A program made the position numbers and the translations under genes. The notes below the pieces were generated by a model. That model saw nothing but the letters and a program-made list of their open reading frames with translations, did no database searches and was not told where the DNA came from. DNA of 24,000 bases. It comes from Azospirillum ramasamyi (GTDB lineage Bacteria > Pseudomonadota > Alphaproteobacteria > Azospirillales > Azospirillaceae). Positions 216 to 12,496 of the stretch are shown in pieces. Position 1 is the first letter of the stretch, and the number at the start of each line of letters is the position of its first letter. The stretch covers positions 544,978-568,977 of the forward strand of contig NZ_CP029829.1 of the NCBI RefSeq assembly GCF_003233655.1, read 5' to 3'.

Positions 216-1601
216 TCAGGCGGCGTTGCATCCGCATGATCCGCCTCCGCAGCCTTGCGGTTCGCCCGCTTCGTGATGGCCGCTCCCGTGATTCTCGTGG
301 TCCATCTCGCGGGCGAGGAACAGGTTGCCGATCTCGCACAGCATCTCGCGCGTGCCCCGGTAGCCGACTTGGACGCGCAGCCCCGCCCCCAGCCGATCGA
401 ACAGCGGCAGGCCCATGCGGTGCAGCGGCACGCCGATCCGCGCCGCCCCCTGCCGCCCGTGCGAATTGGAGATGATCAGGTCGGCGTCGCGGGCCAGCGT
501 CTCCACATCGGAGTGGTCGCCGACCATGATGGTGGCGGCCTTCAGCCGCTCCAGCACCGGGCTTTGCGTCGGCGATACCGCGGCGACGACCTCCGCCCCC
601 ATTTCGCCCAGGAAGCCGGTGACGGCGTAGAGCAGGTCGGGCTCCAGAGCGACGGCGATGCGCTTGCGGCTGAAGAAGAAATGCCCGTCCAGCATGGCGT
701 CGACCAGGGGTTCGCGCTGGCGCCGCAGACGGGCCGGCGCCGGCTTGCCCGACAGTTCCATCAGCAGGCGGACCAGCTTGTCCGTCGCCTCCAGCCCGGT
801 CAGCCGGCTGAAGAAATGGCTGGGAACGTCGGTCTTCAGTTCCAGCGCGTTGCCGGCGACCCGCATATGCTCGCCGACCACGATGGTGGCGGCCGAGGCG
901 CCCATGGCGCGGATCTGTTCCACCGTCACGCCGCCCAGCGAGGTGGCGGTGAAGTCGGTCGGCTGGCGCCCCGCCATCGACAGCGACAGGTCGGGCAGGA
1001 GGATCGGCGACAGGCCGAAGCCCTCGATGATGTCGCGCAGCTCCTCGACGTCGCCGGGCGACAGGTGGCTGCCGGCCAGCACATTGACCTGGGCCGGGAT
1101 GCGCACCGGCGAGGGTTCGACCAGCCTCTCCACCATCGCGGTGACCGCGGCGGCGAAGCCGTCCTCGAAGCCGCCGGCGAAGTCGGGGGTGTTGGCGAAG
1201 ACCAGGGCGGTGCCGGCCATGTCGGGGTTGCGCTGGCGGAACAGCGTGTACTGGCCGCCCATGTCCTCGCCCTTGGTTTCGGTGACGCCGGTGGTGGCGA
1301 CGCCGATCATGGCGGGCTGGTTGCGCTCGACGATGGTGCGGATCGCCTGTTCCAGATTGTCGTAGCCGCCGAGGATGGTGGAGACCTGATCCATCGCCGT
1401 GGTCTGCAGCGGGATCGCCTCGCGGAAATGGCGGACCAGCAGGACCAGCCCGAAGGCGGTGCAGCCCTGCGACCCGTGGAACAGCGGCAGGCAGCGGTCG
1501 ACCCCGAGATAGGCCAGGGCGGCGCCCAGCGGCTGGCTCATCTTCAGCGGGTTGGTCGAGGCGGCCTTGGCGGCGGAGGGGAAGCGCTGGATGTGCGACA
1601 T
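216..1601 (-). CDS. nifN: NifN, nitrogenase MoFe cofactor biosynthesis scaffold subunit
   Basis: 461-aa ORF. The N-terminus STNPLKMSQPLGAALAYLGVDRCLPLFHGSQGCTAF is typical of NifN. The start is 5 nt after the nifE stop, with GGAG just upstream. It ends in an unusual His/Cys-rich tail. Confidence 0.95.
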   Translation of the reverse strand: MSHIQRFPSAAKAASTNPLKMSQPLGAALAYLGVDRCLPLFHGSQGCTAFGLVLLVRHFREAIPLQTTAMDQVSTILGGYDNLEQAIRTIVERNQPAMIGVATTGVTETKGEDMGGQYTLFRQRNPDMAGTALVFANTPDFAGGFEDGFAAAVTAMVERLVEPSPVRIPAQVNVLAGSHLSPGDVEELRDIIEGFGLSPILLPDLSLSMAGRQPTDFTATSLGGVTVEQIRAMGASAATIVVGEHMRVAGNALELKTDVPSHFFSRLTGLEATDKLVRLLMELSGKPAPARLRRQREPLVDAMLDGHFFFSRKRIAVALEPDLLYAVTGFLGEMGAEVVAAVSPTQSPVLERLKAATIMVGDHSDVETLARDADLIISNSHGRQGAARIGVPLHRMGLPLFDRLGAGLRVQVGYRGTREMLCEIGNLFLAREMDHENHGSGHHEAGEPQGCGGGSCGCNAA

Positions 1602-1606
1602 CGGCC

Positions 1607-3013
1607 TTACTCCGCCGCCAGAAGGGTGGAGGACGGGCCGGACTCCCAGGGCGCCGGCTGGCGGACCTGGCCCCAGATCGGATTGGACAGCGTCTTGTCG
1701 ATCTCCTCGCAGAGATTGACGATGCCGTCATAGCCGGCATAGGCGTGGTGGCGTTCCTGGTTGATGTCGAGCCAGGGAACCTTGGCCTTCAGCGAGATGA
1801 ACTGCGACCGGCCGCCGGACATTATGATGTCGGCCTGGTTGTCGGTCAGCATCTTGTAGATGTCGCGCGGCTTCAGGTCGTCCCACTGGTGGAACTCCTC
1901 GCCCTTCATCTTCCTGATGCGCTCCTTGTCCTCCTTGGTCGACTTCTTGGTGGAGGTGCCGAGGATGGTCAGCCCGGCGCCTTCCAGCGCGCTGACCATC
2001 GACCAGCTCTTGACCCCGCCGGTGAACAGGAGGACGCGCTTGCCCTCGAAGCGTGGCTTGTAAGGCTCCAGCCGGCGCCAGACGCGGCTTTCCTCGCGGG
2101 CGATGACGCCCTCCGCCCGGTCGATCAGGCCCTTGTCGGCGCCGCGCTCCACCAGCATGCGGGTCATGGTGCGCAGGGTGTCCGACATGTCGGAGACGCC
2201 GTAGAAGGAGCCCTCGAAATAGGGGATGCCGTAGCGCTCCTGCATCTTGCGGCCGACATTCACCAGCGCCTGGCTGCACACCATCATGGTGACGCGGGCG
2301 CGGTGGGCCTGGGCGACCTCCTTGTAGCGGCCGTCGCCGGAAATGCAGGACAGCAGGCGGATGCCGATCTCGTCGAGCAGCGGCTTGACCAGCCACAGCT
2401 CCCCGGCGAGGTTGTATTCACCGATGATGCAGACATCGGTGGGGGTGGTGTATTCCGGCTCCACCGTGCCGATGACATGCTCCAGCAGGGCTTCGCCGGC
2501 CAGCTTGTTGCCGAGATTCTTCGACCCGACGAAGCCCGGCGCATCCACCGGGATCACCGGCTTGCCCAGCTTCCTGGTGGCGAACTTGCAAACCGCGGCG
2601 ATGTCGTCGCCGGTCATGGCGGGCACGCAGGTCTGATAGACGAAGACGGCCGGCGGATCGTATTGCTGAACGATCTCTTTGATGGCGCGGTAGAGCTTCT
2701 TCTCGCCGCCGCCGATGACGTCCAGTTCCGACAGGTCGGTGGTGAATCCGGTGCGGTAGAGCTGCGGACCCGAGGATTGCGTGCCGCGATTGTCCCAGCT
2801 GTTGCCCAGGCACGCGATGGGGCCATGGACCAGATGGGCGGCGTCGGCGATCGGCTGCAGCACGATCATCGCGCCGTCATAGGCGCAGCCGCCGGCCGCC
2901 GCCCCGGGCTTCAGGGACTTGGTGCAGCCCTTCTTCTTCTCCTTGGCCGACTTGGCTTGGTTGGTCGCGCAGCCCGGTTCGTTGAAGACGTCCTGGATCT
3001 TGTCCTGGAGCAT
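1607..3013 (-). CDS. nifE: NifE, nitrogenase MoFe cofactor biosynthesis scaffold subunit
   Basis: Start set at the internal ATG (3013; MLQDKIQDVFNEPGC...), which is preceded by GGGAGAG. The longer track ORF (to 3235) would cover the sigma54 promoter and the NifA sites. NifE-like motifs are present: GCAYDGAMIVLQPIADAAHLVHGPIAC and SQALVNVGRKM. Confidence 0.93.
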   Translation of the reverse strand: MLQDKIQDVFNEPGCATNQAKSAKEKKKGCTKSLKPGAAAGGCAYDGAMIVLQPIADAAHLVHGPIACLGNSWDNRGTQSSGPQLYRTGFTTDLSELDVIGGGEKKLYRAIKEIVQQYDPPAVFVYQTCVPAMTGDDIAAVCKFATRKLGKPVIPVDAPGFVGSKNLGNKLAGEALLEHVIGTVEPEYTTPTDVCIIGEYNLAGELWLVKPLLDEIGIRLLSCISGDGRYKEVAQAHRARVTMMVCSQALVNVGRKMQERYGIPYFEGSFYGVSDMSDTLRTMTRMLVERGADKGLIDRAEGVIAREESRVWRRLEPYKPRFEGKRVLLFTGGVKSWSMVSALEGAGLTILGTSTKKSTKEDKERIRKMKGEEFHQWDDLKPRDIYKMLTDNQADIIMSGGRSQFISLKAKVPWLDINQERHHAYAGYDGIVNLCEEIDKTLSNPIWGQVRQPAPWESGPSSTLLAAE

Positions 3014-3060
3014 GCCCGCTCTCCCATCCTGGCGCCGGAAATGGCTCTGCGGAGATGAAA

Positions 3061-3077
3061 TGCAGGCGGCGTGCCAG
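3061..3077 (-). promoter_or_regulatory. sigma54 (-24/-12) promoter of nifENX
   Basis: Reverse strand reads CTGGCACGCCGCCTGCA, i.e. GG-N10-GC spacing with a TGGCAC ... TGCA core. It lies about 50 nt upstream of the nifE ATG. Confidence 0.7.
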
Positions 3078-3081
3078 AGGA

Positions 3082-3094
3082 TAAGGCGTTGATT
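3082..3094 (-). promoter_or_regulatory. Candidate IHF site between the NifA sites and the nifE -24/-12 promoter
   Basis: Reverse strand reads AATCAACGCCTTA, which fits the WATCAANNNNTTR consensus at every specified position. Confidence 0.45.
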
Positions 3095-3121
3095 GGAAAG
3101 GATTGTCCGGTTTTCCTGCCC

Positions 3122-3137
3122 TGTCCGATAGCTGACA
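3122..3137. promoter_or_regulatory. NifA upstream activator sequence (TGT-N10-ACA), proximal, nifENX
   Basis: TGTCCGATAGCTGACA, centred about 80 nt upstream of the predicted nifE transcription start. Confidence 0.6.
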
Positions 3138-3160
3138 ATCGGCCGGCTTGGCGGAGGGCT

Positions 3161-3176
3161 TGTCGGGTGTCTCACA
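3161..3176. promoter_or_regulatory. NifA upstream activator sequence (TGT-N10-ACA), distal, nifENX
   Basis: TGTCGGGTGTCTCACA, 39 bp from the proximal site. Confidence 0.55.
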
Positions 3177-3230
3177 TCGCATCGGCCGGCTTGGGAAGGT
3201 CGGCGTGCAGTGCGGGGACGGCCCCGGATG

Positions 3231-3275
3231 CACAAAAGGAAAGCCCGGAGCGCGCCGTCGCCGACGCTCTCCGGG
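3231..3275 (-). terminator. Intrinsic terminator candidate ending the nifHDK transcript
   Basis: Reverse strand: CCCGGAGAGCG - 10-nt loop - CGCGCUCCGGG (10 of 11 positions paired), followed directly by CUUUCCUUUUGUG. It lies about 105 nt after the nifK stop and upstream of the nifE regulatory sites. Confidence 0.55.
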
Positions 3276-3379: not shown

Positions 3380-4939
3380 TCAGCGGATCAGGTCGAACGA
3401 GTAGTCGGTCTGGCCGACGATGTTGGTGTTGGCGTCGATGTCCTCGAAGATCCGGTCGAGGATTCGCACCAGCACGTTCAGCGCGCCCTGGTAGCCCCAG
3501 GTCGGGTAGCGGTGGTGGTGGTGGCGGTCGAAGATCGGGTAGGTCAGGCGGATCAGCGGAACCTTGGTGTCGCGTTCCAGATACTTGCCGTAGCTGTTGC
3601 CGATGATGTAGTCCACCTTGTCGGTGAAGATCAGCGAGCGCAGGTGCCACAGGTCCTTGCCGCCATAGGCCGCACCCGAGGCGCCGAAGGGCGAGCCGTC
3701 CAGCACCTTCTGGACCTGCTTCTCCCACTTCTTGGAGCCGGAGGTGGACAGGATGTGCACCGGCTCCGCACCCAGCTCCAGCAGGAACTTGGTCATGCCC
3801 AGGCAGAAGTCCGGGTCGCCGTAGACGGCGAAGCGCTTGCCGTGCAGGTGGGTGTGGCTGTCGGCGATGGCGTCGACCAGACGGCCGCGCTCCAGCTTCA
3901 GGCTGGCCGGCACCGGCTTGCCCGACAGTTCCGCCAGCTTCAGCAGCAGTTCGTCGGTGGCGGTGACGCCCATCGGGTAGTTGAACTTGGCGACGTCCTG
4001 GCCCTTTTCCTTGCAGAACTGCAGGGTCTGGGTGGTGTTGTACTCCTGCATGGAGAGGGTGGCCTTGGCGTGCAGGGCCGCCTTGGTCTCCTCGATGGTG
4101 GTGCCGCCGTCATACATGCGGTACTCGCCATCCATCGGCGTGTCGAAGTTGTCGGACACGTCGGACAGGATCTGCAGCTTCAGGCCGAACTCGCCGGCGA
4201 TGCGCTTCAGTTCGCGGTTGTTGCCGACGGCGAAACCGTCGAAACCCGGGATCAGGTTGATCTGCTCGGTCTTCGGGGTGTCGAAATTCTCCGAATTGCC
4301 CCAGAAGCTGCTCAGGATCCCCTTCATCATGTTGTCGTAGCCGACGATGTGGCTGCCGACGAAGGCCGGGGTGTGGGCGAACGGCACCGGGAAGTCGGCC
4401 GGCACGCTTTCCTTGTTCTTCGCGTTGGCGATGAAGCCCTGCAGGTCGTCGCCGATGACTTCGGCCATGCAGGTGGTCATCACCGCGATCATCTTCGGCT
4501 TGTAGAGCGCATAGGCGTTCGCCAGGCCGTCGATCATGTTGTTCAGGCCGCCGAACACCGCCGCGTCTTCCGTCATCGACGAGGAGACCGCGCTGTTCGG
4601 CTCCTTGAAGTGGCGGGTCAGATGGGTGCGGTAATAGGCGACGCAGCCTTGGCTGCCGTGGACGAAGGGCAGGGTGCCCTCGAAGCCCTGGGCGGCGAAC
4701 ATCGCACCGATCGGCTGGCAGGCCTTGGTCGGGTTGATGACGACCGCTTCACGGGCGAAGTTCTTCGCCTTGTATTCCTCGGACTTGGTCCATTCGGAGA
4801 CGCGGGCGACCTCCTCGTCCGAATGGCCGTATTCGAACTCGGCCTTCTTCTTCTCGAACATCGCCGCGTATTCGGGCTGCCGGAAGAGGGTGTAGTGGTC
4901 GAGGACCTTGTCGGCGCTCTGCGAAAGCTTGTCGGTCAT
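3380..4939 (-). CDS. nifK: Nitrogenase MoFe protein beta chain NifK
   Basis: [32 protein letters not shown]... and [17 protein letters not shown] are NifK hallmarks. Start set at ATG 4939 (AGGAGA 8 nt upstream) rather than the track's TTG at 4945. Confidence 0.95.
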
Positions 4940-4970
4940 TCTCAAATTCTCCTGTTCCAGAGGCCGATGG

Positions 4971-6410
4971 TCAGAACGGGGCCTTCATCACGCCCCAGAC
5001 GGGGTTGTTGATGGCCAGGTCCATGTCGCGGGCGAAGATCGCGAAGCCGTCATAGCCGTGGTACGGGCCGGAATAATCCCAGCTGTGCATCTGGCGGAAC
5101 GGCAGGCCCATCTTCTGGAACACGTACTTTTCCTTGATGCCCGACGCGACGAGGTCGGGACGCATCGCCTCGACGAACTTCTCCAGTTCGAACGCGGTGA
5201 CGTCGTCGTAGATCAGCGTGCCTTCCTTCACGTAGTGCGGCGTGCGCTGATAGTCGTCGTTGTGGGCGAACTCGTAACCGGTGCCGATGATCTCCATGCC
5301 CAGGTCATGGTAGGCATCGACGACGTGGCGGGGACGCAGGCCGCCGACATAGATCATGACCTTCTTGCCGTCCAGCCGCGGCTTGTACTTGGCGATGACC
5401 GCATCGACCATCGGCTGGTAGCGGGCGATGACCTTCTCCGCGTTCTCCTTGATCTTGTCGTCGAAGAGAGCGGCGATCTTGCGCAGGGATTCGGCGATCT
5501 GGCTCGGGCCGAAGAAGTTGTATTCCATCCAAGGAATATTGTACTTCTCTTCCATGTGGCGCGCGATGTAGTTCATCGAGCGGTAGCAGTGGATCAGGTT
5601 GACCTTGGCCTTCGGCGTGTTCTCCAGCTCGGCCATGGTGCCGTCGCCCGACCACTGGGCGATCACGCGCAGGCCGATCTCCTCCAGCAGGATGCGCGAG
5701 GACCAGGCGTCGCCGCCGATGTTGTAGTCGCCGATGATGGTGACGTCATAGGGGGTGGAGACGAAGTCGGCCTTGGGTTCCGTCTTCTCGAACACCCAGT
5801 CGCGGATGGCGTCGTTGGCGATGTGGTGGCCCAGCGACTGGGACACGCCGCGGAAGCCTTCGCAGCGCACGGGGATGACCGGCTTGCCGATTTCCGCCGA
5901 CTTGGCGCGGGCGACCGCCTCGATGTCGTCGCCGATCAGGCCGATCGGGCATTCCGACTGGATCGAGATGCCGTTCACCAGCGGGAACAGCTCGTTGATT
6001 TCCTCGATGACCTTGTGCAGCTTCTTGTCGCCGCCGAAGACGATGTCCTTCTCCTGGAAGTCGGAGGTGAAGTGCATCGTGCCCCAGCTGTCCACGCCGG
6101 TGTCGCCGATGTAGTAGTTGCGGCGGCCGGACCAGGAGTAGTAGCCGCAGCCCACGGGCCCGTGGGAGATGTGGATCATGTCCTTGATCGGACCCCACAC
6201 CACGCCCTTGGAACCGGCATAGGCGCAGCCGCGGATCGTCATGACGCCGGGGATGGACTTGACGTTCGACTTGACGCCGCAGTCCTTGGCCTCGGCCTCC
6301 AGCACGTTCAGGTGCTTGGCGCGGCGCTTGCGGGATTTTTCGGGATAGGCTTCGAGGACTTCGTTGACGAGGTTCTTGACGTCGACCGTGGTGTTCTCGG
6401 ACAGGCTCAT
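4971..6410 (-). CDS. nifD: Nitrogenase MoFe protein alpha chain NifD
   Basis: 479 aa. Contains [37 protein letters not shown] and the HCYRSMNY region (FeMo-co and P-cluster ligand contexts). AGGAGG lies 8 nt upstream of the ATG. Confidence 0.97.
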
Positions 6411-6614: not shown

Positions 6615-7586
<972 letters not shown>

Positions 7587-7594
7587 TCATGGAG

Positions 7595-7611
7595 TGCACG
7601 ACCCGTGCCAG
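7595..7611 (-). promoter_or_regulatory. sigma54 (-24/-12) promoter of nifHDK
   Basis: Reverse strand reads CTGGCACGGGTCGTGCA with GG-N10-GC spacing. The -12 region is GTGCA rather than the consensus TTGCA. It lies about 85 nt upstream of the nifH ATG. Confidence 0.7.
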
Positions 7612-7678: not shown

Positions 7679-7694
7679 TGTCGTGGTCCCGACA
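7679..7694. promoter_or_regulatory. NifA upstream activator sequence (TGT-N10-ACA) of nifH
   Basis: TGTCGTGGTCCCGACA, centred about 100 nt upstream of the predicted start. It is embedded in a perfect 10-bp inverted repeat, CTTTGTCGTG (7676-7685) / CACGACAAAG (7697-7706). Confidence 0.65.
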
Positions 7695-7789
7695 CACACG
7701 ACAAAGCCCGACATTTTGTCAGGTCTTTATGGCGGCGGGGTGCGCGGCGGGGTGCGGACAGCGGATTTCCCACTTCCCAAGGCCGAAGC

Positions 7790-9103
7790 CTACCGCCGTT
7801 CGCCCAGAGCCTCCGTCGCGACGACGATGCGCAGCGCCAGCTCTTCCACCGCCTCGTCGCGGTCCATGTCGTAGAGCAACTGCGCCAGCAGCCGGCCGCG
7901 CGCCATCAGGCGGCGGGCCAAAGCCGGATCGGCGGGCTTGGCCAGCAGCGCCTCGACCAGCCGTTCGCCGGTCAGGCGGGCCAGGGCGTCGCAGCGGTCG
8001 ACCAGCCGCTGCTTCAGCGTGTCCACGGCGGCAGGGCGGCCGGCATGGGTCAGGTCGGCGCAGAAATGGTGCAGGCTGCGCAGCTGGCGCAGCAGGGCGG
8101 CGAACAGAAGGTCGTCCAGATCGCCGCCGGCCGCGGCCTTGCCGACAAGATCGAACAATGTGTCGGAAAGCCGCCATGCCGCCGACAGCCAGTCGTTCAT
8201 CGCCTTGCGGTCGGCCGGCTCGACGAAGGGGCCGGACTCCTCCTTCGTCTCCTCCTGGTCGTCCAGGTTGCGAAGCGCGATGACGATCAGCCCATCGGCC
8301 TGGGCAAGGGTGGCGAGGCTGGCATGAAGCGCCTTCAGCCCTCGGTCGGCGACGAACCCTTCGATCGCCTCGGTGGCGCGGTACAGGGAGTAGCGGGCAA
8401 GCCGGCGCGACTGATAGACGACATCCTGCAACGCACTGCCGCCGCCCAGCGCCTCCAGCATCATCCGCCGCACCTCGAAGCGCAGCAGGGCGCGGGCCAG
8501 CCGGTCGATGCCGCCGACGTCGATGGGGCGGCGGTCCCTGGTCAGCACGTCGGCGGTGGCGCGGGCGTCGCTCTCGATGGCGCCGATCACCGCCTGGAGA
8601 TGCCCCTTGCCGCCGCCGCGCATCCGGCTGACCAGCCCCCGCATCGCCTCGGCAAGGTCGATGGCGCTGGGCAGGCTTTCCTCATGGGCGGTGCGGCCGG
8701 TCACCAGCCGGTCGATCAGATGGTCGCGCACCCCCGGCAGCAGCACGTCGGTGACGATCTGCCCGATCGGCCGCAGCAGCGCCTCCAGAAGCCGGCCCGG
8801 CGGCTGACCGGCCAGTCCCGGCAGCGGATTGATCGGCTTGGGCACCAGCCTTGGCCGGTGCGGCTCCAGCAACTCCAGCACCGCGTCGCCGCGCAGGGGG
8901 GTGATGTTGCCGCGCAGAAGCTGGGCGAGGCGCAGGACCGTCCGCGCCTCGCCGATGCCGCGCGGCGGGAGACCGTCGGGTTCCGCCGGGGCGGCGGCTG
9001 CGGGCTGGGGAGGGGAGGGCGGCGTCCGGACAGGCGTCGGCGTGGCCACCGGCGGGGTGCGCCGGCGCCGACTGTCGTCGTACTTGGTCGGCCAGAAGGC
9101 CAT
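7790..9103 (-). CDS. Hypothetical protein, 437 aa, no family recognised
   Basis: Reverse-strand ORF with strongly G/C-ending codons (ATG GCC TTC TGG CCG ACC AAG TAC GAC GAC ...) and normal amino-acid composition. The overlapping 592-aa forward ORF is Q/G/H/R-rich and runs into nifH, so it is a shadow frame. The start codon is not certain because the SD is weak. Confidence 0.75.
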   Translation of the reverse strand: MAFWPTKYDDSRRRRTPPVATPTPVRTPPSPPQPAAAAPAEPDGLPPRGIGEARTVLRLAQLLRGNITPLRGDAVLELLEPHRPRLVPKPINPLPGLAGQPPGRLLEALLRPIGQIVTDVLLPGVRDHLIDRLVTGRTAHEESLPSAIDLAEAMRGLVSRMRGGGKGHLQAVIGAIESDARATADVLTRDRRPIDVGGIDRLARALLRFEVRRMMLEALGGGSALQDVVYQSRRLARYSLYRATEAIEGFVADRGLKALHASLATLAQADGLIVIALRNLDDQEETKEESGPFVEPADRKAMNDWLSAAWRLSDTLFDLVGKAAAGGDLDDLLFAALLRQLRSLHHFCADLTHAGRPAAVDTLKQRLVDRCDALARLTGERLVEALLAKPADPALARRLMARGRLLAQLLYDMDRDEAVEELALRIVVATEALGERR

Positions 9104-9295
9104 TCGGGTGCCGCCGGATCATGAGCGTCGCTGTACTGAGTATGGGGACGGAGCGTCCGGCTTCAAACGGACAATCTTGCGACATGGGGCGTTGAGCCCT
9201 CCGCGCCTCTCTGCCGGCCTCCTGGCGGTTGCGTTGCTCAAGGCTTGGCACGCGCGCGTTTATACAATATCCATACTTGAATTAATGATATTCGG

Positions 9296-10201
9296 ATGGG
9301 GCGGACCGGCGTGGTGGATGGGGTGACGACACAGGATGAATCCGGCCGGAAGACGGAGCCCGATTCGCCCCCCGATTCCCCGCTGGCCCTTCGCGTCCAC
9401 CGCACCAACCTCGTCAACATCCCGGCCGCCACGCTGTGCGGCGAAGCCTACAACGACGAGCCGCGGCGCCTGCGCATCGGCGCCACCCGCAGCGAGCACG
9501 CGGCATTGTTCGAGGCGCTGGACGAAAGCCCCGACGCGCTGACCGCGTCGGACGTCTTCCAGCGCCATATGGCCGAGGTGTTCGGGGTGAATCCCGACTT
9601 CTCCGGGGCGGAGGGGCCGGACGGCAAGCGCCGTTTCCGTGCCAGCTACCTGCGCCTGCTGAAGGGCTGGATGTTCGACAGCAACCGGGCGGTAGGCGCG
9701 GTGATGAAGGGATGGGTGGAGAGCCGGTTCGGTCTGCTGCCGACCTTCCACGGCGAACCGATCCACCGCTTCACCTCCGATGCCTGGGCCGCCTATGGCG
9801 AGCAGAAGCAGTCGACCCGCTTCCACAACAACAACATCCACCTGCAGCTCGACCTTCTGTACGAGTTCTGCCAATGGACCATCCGTCGCGGCTGGCCCGA
9901 TGCGCCGATGCCCAACTGGGCTTCGCACATCCGGCTGTACCGCGGCGTCAACGATTTCGAGGAACACCACATCGTCGCGCGGCCGGACCGGCGCACGGCG
10001 GTGCTGCGGCTGAACAACCTGTGTTCCTTTTCCATCGACCGCGACATCGCCGGCCAGTTCGGCGACTACATCCTCGACGCCTGGGTGCCGCTGCCCAAGG
10101 TCGTCTTCTTCCGCGACATCCTGCCGCGCTACCCTTTCCAGGGCGAAGGGGAGTATCTGGTGATCGGCGGGGATTACCGGGTGGGTGTGTCGCTTCTCTG
10201 A
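9296..10201 (+). CDS. draT: Dinitrogenase reductase ADP-ribosyltransferase DraT
   Basis: HRTNLVNIPAATL, NNNIHLQLDLLYEFCQW, and an R ... SxS ... ExE pattern (LYRGV, CSFSID, QGEGEYLV) are as expected for an arginine-specific ADP-ribosyltransferase. It is divergent from nifH and directly upstream of draG. The start is uncertain: no SD precedes ATG 9296, and in-frame GTGs lie at 9311-9323. Confidence 0.88.
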   Translation: MGRTGVVDGVTTQDESGRKTEPDSPPDSPLALRVHRTNLVNIPAATLCGEAYNDEPRRLRIGATRSEHAALFEALDESPDALTASDVFQRHMAEVFGVNPDFSGAEGPDGKRRFRASYLRLLKGWMFDSNRAVGAVMKGWVESRFGLLPTFHGEPIHRFTSDAWAAYGEQKQSTRFHNNNIHLQLDLLYEFCQWTIRRGWPDAPMPNWASHIRLYRGVNDFEEHHIVARPDRRTAVLRLNNLCSFSIDRDIAGQFGDYILDAWVPLPKVVFFRDILPRYPFQGEGEYLVIGGDYRVGVSLL

Positions 10202-10278: not shown

Positions 10279-11187
10279 ATGACGGATCCTACGACTCTGA
10301 CGGCCGAAATACGGTCCAGGGCGCTCGGCGCCTATCTCGGCCTCGCCTGCGGCGATGCGCTGGGGGCGACGGTGGAGTTCCTGACCAAGGGCGAGATCGC
10401 CCACCAGTATGGTGTCCACAAGCACATCAAGGGCGGCGGCTGGCTGAAGCTGACGGCCGGGCAGGTGACCGACGACACGGAGATGTCGCTGCATCTCGGC
10501 CGCGCCATCCTGTCGGGCCCGGAGTGGGAGGCCCACCGCGCCGCGGAGGAGTTCGCGCTCTGGCTGAAATCGGTGCCGGTCGATGTCGGCGACACGACCC
10601 GCCGCGGCATCCGCCGCTTCATCATGCGCGGCACGCTGGATGAGCCGGAATCGGAGTACCACGCCGGCAACGGCGCTGCGATGCGCAACCTGCCGGTGGC
10701 GCTGGCGACGCTGGGCGACGACGCGGCGTTCGAGCGCTGGTCGGTGGAACAGTCGCACATCACCCATTGCAACGGGCTGTCCGATTCCGCGGTGATCGCT
10801 CTGGGCCGGATGGTGCGGCGGCTGGTGCTGGGCGGCGGCGTCCTCGCCGCGCGGGAGGAGGCGAACGCCCTGATCGCCAGGCACCGGCAGTTCAAGTTCC
10901 AACCCTACCGCGGGCTGTCGACGGCGTTCGTGGTCGATACGGTGCAGACCGTCTTCCACTATTACTTCCAAACCGATTCGGTCGAATCCTGCGTGGTGGA
11001 GACGGTGAACCAGGGCGGCGACGCCGACACGACCGGCGCCATCGCCGGCATGCTGGCCGGCGCGACCTATGGCGTCGAATCGATACCGCCGCGCTGGCTG
11101 CGCAAGCTGGACCGCAAGGTCCACGACGAGATTTGTCAGCAAACCGACGCGCTGCTGGCCCGTGCGCCGCTGTTCCAGGGGAGATGA
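10279..11187 (+). CDS. draG: ADP-ribosyl-[dinitrogenase reductase] glycohydrolase DraG
   Basis: 302 aa. ALGAYLGLACGDALGATVEF, VTDDTEMS and NQGGDADTTGAIAGMLAGATYG are ADP-ribosylglycohydrolase metal-site motifs. It follows draT after 77 nt. Confidence 0.95.
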   Translation: MTDPTTLTAEIRSRALGAYLGLACGDALGATVEFLTKGEIAHQYGVHKHIKGGGWLKLTAGQVTDDTEMSLHLGRAILSGPEWEAHRAAEEFALWLKSVPVDVGDTTRRGIRRFIMRGTLDEPESEYHAGNGAAMRNLPVALATLGDDAAFERWSVEQSHITHCNGLSDSAVIALGRMVRRLVLGGGVLAAREEANALIARHRQFKFQPYRGLSTAFVVDTVQTVFHYYFQTDSVESCVVETVNQGGDADTTGAIAGMLAGATYGVESIPPRWLRKLDRKVHDEICQQTDALLARAPLFQGR

Positions 11188-11190
11188 GCG

Positions 11191-11610
11191 ATGGCTGATG
11201 TGGTGTTCTACGAAAAACCCGGCTGCGGCGGCAACGCCCGCCAGAAGGTACTGCTGGAGCAGGCCGGCCACCGCGTGTTCGCCCGTGACCTGTTGAGCGA
11301 GCCCTGGACGCCCGAGACGCTCCGTCCCTTCTTCGGCGACCGCCCGGTGGCGGACTGGTTCAACCGTGCCGCCTCCGCGGTCAAGAGCGGCGAGGTGGTG
11401 CCGGAGGCGCTGGACGAGGCCGCTGCGTTGGCCGCGATGGTCGAACGGCCGCTGCTGATCCGCCGCCCGCTGATGCAGGTCGGCGACCGCCGCGACTGCG
11501 GATTCGAGACCGGCCGGGTCGATGCCTGGATCGGGCTGGGCGAAGCCGGGACCGAAGGGAAGATGGAGGGCTGCCTGCGGCCGGACATGCCGCCCTGTCC
11601 GAAGCCGTGA
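11191..11610 (+). CDS. ArsC/Spx-family nitrogenase-associated protein
   Basis: 139 aa. The N-terminus [24 protein letters not shown] has the ArsC/Spx thioredoxin-like pattern with a single N-terminal Cys. The ATG lies 3 nt after the draG stop, with GGGGAGA overlapping the end of draG. Confidence 0.8.
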
Positions 11611-11725
11611 GCCGTCAAACCCTGACGTGCATGAAGGGCGCGGGCCATGTCAACGCGTGACCTCGCCCGCCTCCTGTCGTAGCTTGTCGCCCCCAAGGCG
11701 ACGACCAGCGGCAGACGAGGACATC

Positions 11726-12496
11726 ATGTGCGAACTCCTGGGCATGAGCGCCAACGTGCCCACGGACATCTGCTTCAGCTTCGCCGGGCTGATGCGCCGC
11801 GGCGGACAGACCGGGCCGCACCGCGACGGCTGGGGCATCGCCTTCTACGAAGGCAAGGGCTGCCGCACCTTCCACGATCCGGCCCCCAGTGCCGAATCGG
11901 AGATCGCCCGGCTGGTCAGCCAATATTCGATCAAGTCCTGTACGGTGATCTCCCACATCCGCCGGGCCAACCGCGGCCGGGTGTCGCTGGAGAACACCCA
12001 TCCCTTCACCCGCGAACTTTGGGGCCGGGTGTGGACCTTCGCCCACAATGGCCAGCTGAAGGGCATCAAGGACCGTGTGTTGACCTTCTACGAGCCGGTC
12101 GGCAGCACCGACAGCGAACATGCCTTCTGCTGGCTGCTCGACCAGATCCGCATGCAGTATCCCGAGCCGCCGAAGACCACCGCCGGCCTGATGAGGCTGA
12201 TCCGCCATCTCGCCGCCGATCTGGGCACGCTGGGCGTGTTCAACATGCTGCTCAGCGACGGGCGGTATCTGTGGTGCCACTGCGCCACCAACCTCGCCTG
12301 GCTGACCCGCAAGGCGCCGTTCGGCGCCGCCACGCTGGTCGATGCCGACATGAGCGTCGATTTCTCCAAGGAGACGACGCCCAACGACGTCGTCACCGTC
12401 ATCGCCACCCGGCCGCTGACCAGGGACGAGGCCTGGACGGTGATGCAGCCGGGGCAGATGGCGGTCTTCCGCGGCGGGGCGCTGGTGACGCGCTGA
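11726..12496 (+). CDS. Class II (Ntn-type) glutamine amidotransferase, YafJ-like
   Basis: Start set at the internal ATG giving [12 protein letters not shown] (nucleophile Cys2), with GAGG 8 nt upstream. Downstream come [18 protein letters not shown] and [19 protein letters not shown]. The 68-codon upstream extension in the track has no support. Confidence 0.85.

Follow-up and report, generated by a model that had tools for sequence, protein, structure and literature searches.

The window analysed here, a 24,000-nucleotide stretch of Azospirillum ramasamyi DNA (contig NZ_CP029829.1, positions 544,978 to 568,977 of the forward strand), carries nifH and its companion nif genes on one strand and draT with draG on the other. 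Between nifH and draT lies a gene of 437 codons, from this point on referred to as the orphan gene, that is annotated merely as encoding a hypothetical protein. The draTG-nifHDK region of Azospirillum is among the best-studied loci in associative nitrogen fixation, and draT has been placed about 1.9 kb upstream of nifH in the literature since the early 1990s. A literature search returned no paper describing the orphan gene, its locus tags or the content of the nifH-draT gap, in line with an initial annotation of this stretch that knew of no described function for the spacer; locus tags neighbouring the orphan gene are likewise absent from the supplements of an A. brasilense RNA sequencing paper. 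Because no relative is characterised, the family is rated new. This novelty is that of a family only, with no new mechanism shown, and genus-restricted orphan proteins are common. The genes of the region and the control sites of nifH are as follows.

216-1601, minus strand: nifN
1607-3235, minus strand: nifE
3380-4945, minus strand: nifK
4971-6410, minus strand: nifD
6615-7511, minus strand: nifH
7595-7610, minus strand: sigma54 -24/-12 promoter of nifH, TGGCAC-N5-GTGCA
7679-7694, minus strand: NifA upstream activator site of nifH, TGT-N10-ACA, 95 nt past the orphan stop codon
7790..9103, minus strand: coding sequence of the orphan gene, 437 aa, ATG start and TAG stop (from the list of open reading frames, third-position composition and substitution rates)
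9296-10201, plus strand: draT
10279-11187, plus strand: draG
11191-11610, plus strand: ArsC-like gene (draB), directly after draG
About 11720-12496, plus strand: GATase_4 gene, a class-II glutamine amidotransferase (E = 3e-112)

The open reading frame (ORF) at 7790-9103 is a genuine, uncharacterised protein-coding gene. Its product, of 47.6 kDa and isoelectric point 8.9, is 100% identical to the A. ramasamyi hypothetical protein WP_111065783.1. Guanine-plus-cytosine (GC) content by codon position is 0.78/0.50/0.90, resembling that of nifH, nifD, draT and draG of the window, and the third-position value (GC3) lies between 0.84 and 0.98 across all 50-codon blocks. The ratio of nonsynonymous to synonymous substitution rates (dN/dS) is 0.12-0.34 between close species pairs, as against 0.00-0.28 for the neighbouring genes, and the frame is therefore under purifying selection; the values of 0.7-1.0 obtained for very distant pairs were disregarded, dS saturating at about 0.5-0.6 in these codon-biased genomes. 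Long ORFs are frequent in GC-rich DNA, and a 592-aa ORF overlaps the orphan gene in antisense, which could invite the view that the frame is open by chance and is no gene at all. That view is refuted, and its probability is negligible: GC3 is 0.90 against merely 0.72 for the antisense frame, 99 full-length homologues share conserved motifs, dN/dS is about 0.2-0.3, and the structure model described below is confident. The ORF was thus rightly called clearly coding in the initial annotation, and its frame is conserved in relatives, with dN/dS well below 1. The geometry given there also stands, in that the stop codon, on the strand of nifHDK, is about 90 bp from the NifA site of nifH (95 nt as measured) and the start is 192 bp from the ATG of the divergent draT, at 9296. 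Although selected, the orphan gene evolves faster than its neighbours: between the window and the brasilense clade its product retains 61% identity, as against 76-81% for DraT, about 85% for DraG and 95% for NifH.

The protein falls into two parts, in agreement with the earlier description of a Pro-rich N-terminus followed by about 390 residues of helical appearance.

8963..9103, minus strand: disordered Pro-rich N-terminal tail, codons 1-47 (from model confidence and composition)
7790..8962, minus strand: all-alpha domain of 14 helices, codons 48-437 (from the AlphaFold2 model and alignments)

Residues 1-47 are 30% Pro. In the AlphaFold2 model, built on a 20-sequence alignment (mean predicted local distance difference test score, pLDDT, 80.6; predicted template modelling score, pTM, 0.73), residues 1-41 are disordered, with pLDDT below 50, and 14 helices follow. 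A W-P-(T/M) motif stands at the extreme N-terminus, with K next in most species (MAFWPTKYDD or MWPMKR), and is kept in all clades, while the rest of the tail varies among them. This conservation supports the long start codon and suggests that the peptide is a short docking motif. Within the helical domain, R208, R233, R237, D270, R278, D281 and F293 are conserved family-wide, and the conserved motifs are YQSRRLAR, LRNLDDQEE and FVEPADR. The protein is soluble, cytoplasmic and mildly basic, and it is rich in Leu, Ala and Arg. Neither a transmembrane segment nor a signal peptide was found (the top Kyte-Doolittle score over 19 residues is 1.53, and the N-terminus is not hydrophobic); the sequence has two Cys only and no P-loop, and the family alignment contains no conserved Cys/His cluster and no catalytic or metal-binding motif. 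The initial annotation had reported no transmembrane segment, P-loop or Cys cluster, and this is borne out.

Its further statement, that no recognisable motif is present, holds equally for profile and fold searches, which gave no relative in Pfam, NCBIfam, the sequences of the PDB or its folds. Scans of the orphan protein and 31 relatives against Pfam and NCBIfam returned nothing above threshold, the best match of the family profile to PDB sequences has an E-value of 0.11, and a Foldseek search of the PDB returned generic helical-repeat proteins only, with template modelling scores of 0.1-0.33 and none at E <= 0.001. These top matches are helical repeat or solenoid proteins (HEAT/TPR-like proteins, designed helical repeats, Exo70), which resemble the orphan protein in being all-alpha with long paired helices. 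The orphan protein has no HEAT or TPR Pfam match; one family member has a weak HEAT_EZ match (E = 0.19), and an internal repeat is not convincing (hhalign probability <= 25%). Two candidate families were rejected. A match to the GntR-type helix-turn-helix domain (PF00392) is due to chance, reaching 16 bits against a cutoff of 27 bits (E = 0.0097) over 31 residues in one of 31 members. The label DUF2336 (Pfam PF10098), carried by several UniRef clusters of orthologs, was not reproduced by hmmscan against Pfam-A, which found no such domain at E <= 10 in P0060, P0262, P0266 and P0267 and none at E <= 1 in the 31 members. The family has DUF2336 in common in name alone, through the UniRef labels on orthologs.

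The family is narrowly distributed, as judged from its named relatives, which all statements on distribution here cover. A word-indexed search returned 99 full-length homologues, the named ones all from Azospirillum or, by genome context, from an Azospirillum metagenome-assembled genome (MAG). An exhaustive HMMER search of 1.84 billion representatives returned 35 relative clusters only, of which the named distant ones are again from Azospirillum, together with one Thalassobaculales MAG; the latter was also the source of the only named relative gained by a profile search with the distant alignment A2. DraT, by contrast, is widespread, occurring in Skermanella, Telmatospirillum, Magnetospirillum, Pararhodospirillum, Consotaella and others, and no named relative of the orphan protein comes from any other draT-positive genus. 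Co-occurrence with draT across draT-positive diazotrophs, a check suggested in the initial annotation, is therefore not seen. In A. brasilense the orphan gene bears the locus tags AMK58_04665 (strain Sp7) and Sp245p_11560 (strain Sp245).

Paralogues of the orphan protein do occur at other sites, in Azospirillum-like genomes. With lengths of 360-400 aa and no Pro-rich N-terminal tail, they align at about 30-35% identity over about 330-390 residues, with phmmer E-values of 1e-23 to 1e-30 (P0104, P0105, P0110 and P0113). In four of four loci they diverge from a small DUF3072 gene, far from nif or dra genes. These DUF3072-linked helical proteins are true homologues, sharing all seven family-wide residues listed above with the orphan protein, and are as uncharacterised as it is. 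In A. oleiclasticum a second paralogue exists alongside the draT-linked copy. A DUF3072 gene was sought in the window and in the nif-linked loci, and none was found. As a separate observation, the spacer between the DUF3072 gene and the paralogue holds a GAAC-N7-GAAC element (GAACATAACAAGAAC / GAACATTACAAGAAC) by the DUF3072 start (L047, about 7895-7925; L048, about 2925-2945), which we take to be an alphaproteobacterial LexA box; it is absent in L050 and L051.

Control signals for the orphan gene and for draT were sought in the spacer between them, using an alignment of 14 species (A3), in which two conserved footprints stand out from an otherwise diverged sequence. The elements on either side of the orphan gene are given below.

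7707..7723, minus strand: weak hairpin after the orphan stop codon and before the NifA site, the sole terminator-like element there, with a poor T-tract
9139..9166, minus strand: predicted promoter of the orphan gene, TTGAAG-N16-CATACT, its bases invariant in alignment A3
9170..9185, minus strand: direct repeat of 11-bp period just upstream of the orphan -35 element, ATGTC-N6-TTGTC (alignment A3)
9245..9273, plus strand: putative draT promoter, TTGGCA-N17-TATCCA, ending 22 nt before the draT ATG

The first footprint coincides with the exact site that the initial annotation had proposed as a sigma70-like promoter. Its motif, TTGA..-N13/14-.CCATA.T, occurs in 37 of 43 loci, 3 of which have no adjacent draT, and in most of the 37 it lies at -63 to -68 relative to the ATG; the brasilense clade has the version TTGAAC-N17-CATAGT. 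It is not shared by the paralogues, upstream of which it was also sought. The adjoining repeat may be the binding site of a regulator; in the brasilense clade it reads ATATC-N6-ATATC. The second footprint (ATGGATA..GCCAAG on the other strand) is found in 35 of 38 draT-adjacent loci and in none of the 5 loci without an adjacent draT, and is for this reason probably the draT promoter. In 18 of 19 loci, the 300 bp upstream of the orphan gene contain neither a NifA site (TGT-N10-ACA) nor a sigma54 promoter (TGGYAY-N5-YTGCW), the sole exception being an isolated TGT-N10-ACA in L001. On the strength of the conserved first footprint, the orphan gene is predicted to be driven by its own sigma70-type promoter, independently of NifA and sigma54. 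We also noted that the brasilense clade has an extra 70-80 bp in this spacer, with an AT-rich conserved element, TTTCGAAA-N-CGAAACAA, about 100-150 nt upstream of the ORF (L027, L029, L031, L035, L039 and L041), which the lipoferum clade and the window lack.

The same promoter bases can be read in another way. The sigma32 consensus known from Escherichia coli is TTGAAA-N13/14-CCCCATNT, and the orphan promoter is readable as a sigma32-like TTGAAG-N13-CCCCATAC, with TTGA..-N13/14-(C)CCATA.T at a fixed position in 37 of 43 loci; the product would then be a stress-induced helical protein dependent on the heat-shock sigma factor RpoH. This is improbable in our estimate, as sigma70 fits the same bases equally well in both the TTGAAG-N16-CATACT form and the brasilense TTGAAC-N17-CATAGT form, and as the brasilense clade reads CACCATAGT rather than CCCCAT.

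A different proposal assigns importance to the DNA and little to the protein, in that transcription of the orphan gene would insulate the divergent draT promoter from that of nifH or would feed read-through into the nifH promoter. The gene is oriented as nifHDK in all loci and is followed, before the NifA site, by the weak hairpin alone (fold z = -2.1; 2 terminator-like sites observed against 0.9 expected). Since no convincing intrinsic terminator lies between them, read-through into the nifH promoter is possible in principle. Expression of nifH in A. brasilense is, however, strictly NifA- and RpoN-dependent, so that read-through would matter little and has little room to be functional. With the protein sequence itself under selection (dN/dS 0.12-0.34) and the gene persisting where no nifH lies downstream, such a positional role has only a slim chance of being correct.

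The genomic setting of the orphan gene was compared in 42 species loci. The order GATase4-ArsC-draG-draT, divergent from ORF-nifH-nifD, is found in 35 of them (GATase4 itself was not detected in L021), and one further locus has nifH downstream and a sequence that ends upstream of the orphan gene. Synteny with draTG and nifH in most Azospirillum species, as the initial annotation led one to expect, is therefore present, and orthologs lie mostly beside nif or dra genes. The following loci depart from this order.

A. halopraeferens: chemotaxis cluster, then the ORF followed by nifHDK in the same direction; draTG-ArsC on another contig
A. oleiclasticum: draGT divergent from the ORF, then Fic and MutL genes; no nifH within 8 kb
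A. griseum: GATase4, a peptidoglycan-binding hydrolase gene, the ORF, an IS66 remnant, a ferritin-like gene and MalQ
Strain SYSU D00513: GATase4 divergent from the ORF, which is followed by a chemoreceptor gene
A related MAG (L023): PAS-domain and glycogen genes downstream; 546 bp available upstream, with no draT therein

The gene was thus overstated to be fixed between nifH and draT, as nifHDK alone accompanies it in A. halopraeferens and draTG alone in A. oleiclasticum, and it has neither beside it at the loci of A. griseum and SYSU D00513, where no draTG or nifH occurs in the stretch read. Between two griseum-clade loci without nifH, dN/dS is 0.25, equal to the values found elsewhere. In the sister genus Skermanella, nifNEKDH and draT-draG-ArsC-GATase4 diverge from a nifH-draT spacer of 331 bp that has no gene inside, and the orphan gene is for that reason most simply an insertion in the Azospirillum lineage. 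In this simplest history, nifH and draT would have lain back to back in the ancestor, the gene would have entered the spacer in the Azospirillum lineage, and later rearrangements would have taken away one or both neighbours while the orphan gene stayed. The existence of tail-less, DUF3072-linked paralogues, with both copies in A. oleiclasticum, makes the nif-linked gene look like a duplicate from an older Azospirillaceae family.

The DNA on either side of the orphan gene is a hotspot for insertions. In addition to the IS66 remnant of A. griseum downstream of the ORF, a peptidoglycan-binding hydrolase gene and a HigB/HigA toxin-antitoxin pair separate draT from the ORF in A. cavernae, and in A. 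lipoferum and A. melinis the ORF is separated from nifH by an insert of 1.4 kb that carries an antisense ORF of 311-321 aa without a Pfam match. The insertions lie at L028 5988-7861, L024 9749-10666, L015 9412-10347 and L045 9375-10340. The Fic-domain gene of A. oleiclasticum (L004 9333-10532, minus strand) converges on the 3' end of the orphan gene with a slight overlap, and A. halopraeferens has another Fic gene and a PIN toxin gene after nifK (L054 13989-15464).

What the protein does may be considered in the light of this history. The initial annotation had proposed an accessory or regulatory factor of nitrogenase or of the switch-off system, and a factor of this kind, specific to Azospirillum and acting, for instance, as an adaptor that docks NifH, DraT, DraG or PII, would account for several features. 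In the 35 loci the gene lies precisely between nifH and draT; it stays with nifHDK or with draTG after rearrangement in A. halopraeferens and A. oleiclasticum, and belongs to a nif-linked subfamily that has gained a Pro-rich tail and a conserved motif that the paralogues off nif lack. The part of the proposal that stands is that the gene is real and syntenic. Against the functional part, the gene is retained under unchanged purifying selection (dN/dS 0.25) at loci without flanking nif and dra genes, it is absent in Skermanella and its named relatives come from no other draT-positive genus, it has no NifA or sigma54 control signal, its product diverges more quickly than those of its neighbours (identity 61%, with DraT at 76-81% and NifH at 95%), and its paralogues lie away from nif genes. 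A nitrogenase-related role is unsupported by present evidence, and we regard such a factor as doubtful. In a narrower form of the same idea, which we consider unlikely, the protein would be a genus-specific adaptor of the post-translational control of nitrogenase, recruited to the nifH-draT spacer for this role, its helical domain and W-P-(T/M) peptide docking DraT, DraG, NifH or PII. Should nitrogenase or DraT/DraG prove to be modulated by the protein, a textbook regulatory system would gain a genus-specific layer, of relevance to the engineering of ammonium-excreting inoculant strains; as an adaptor, the protein could explain features of ammonium or energy switch-off that are peculiar to Azospirillum.

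We favour, at about even odds, a lineage-specific, non-enzymatic binding or scaffold protein that is not dedicated to nitrogenase. A copy of the older Azospirillaceae helical family, other members of which lie by DUF3072 genes, would have landed in the short ancestral spacer between the divergent nifH and draT. Its product would offer the Arg/Leu/Ala-rich helical domain of about 390 residues as the binding surface of a scaffold or adaptor, with the N-terminal motif of the disordered, Pro-rich tail of about 45 residues serving as a docking peptide. The role would be independent of nitrogenase, and the place beside nifH and draT, which may be a historical accident, would be largely a matter of descent. 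Several points weigh against this reading. Linkage to both draT and nifH persists in 35 of 42 loci at 60-95% protein identity, which is long for a neutral position, and after break-up of the locus the orphan gene kept one nif or dra partner in two lineages. The lack of nif and dra genes in A. griseum and SYSU D00513 holds for the stretch of the locus that was read. The scaffold or adaptor role, finally, is inferred solely from an all-helical fold without catalytic motifs. If the favoured reading is correct, the orphan gene serves as a caution that a gene may be tightly syntenic with a famous operon through an accident of history.

The ArsC-like gene after draG provides a comparison. It is draB, the established third gene of the draTGB operon, and has been discussed as NifO-like (PMC5249018). 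It is a further small accessory gene tied to nitrogenase regulation by its synteny with draTG (PMC5249018). It differs from the orphan gene in belonging to an unrelated family, that of the ArsC fold, and in accompanying nif genes in many phyla, the orphan gene being limited to a single genus. It accompanies draTG in every draTG-bearing locus, including those of Skermanella and A. halopraeferens, and is lost along with draTG in A. griseum and SYSU D00513, where the orphan gene is retained. The GATase_4 gene follows draTG-ArsC in both Azospirillum and Skermanella and stays beside the orphan gene when draTGB is deleted.

An Rfam scan of the whole window gave no match. Among the nif genes, NifH occurs as two alleles that differ at 11 residues (the window against L005, L006, L020 and L026), namely G34D, V80L, G86N, I196W, E200D, E236D, E241G, Q245A, S248N, V250I and N252A. 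The allele of the window is also found in A. oryzae A2P and A. picis, and the other in A. oryzae COC8 and strain BE72. This discordance with the species tree suggests recombination of nifH within Azospirillum.

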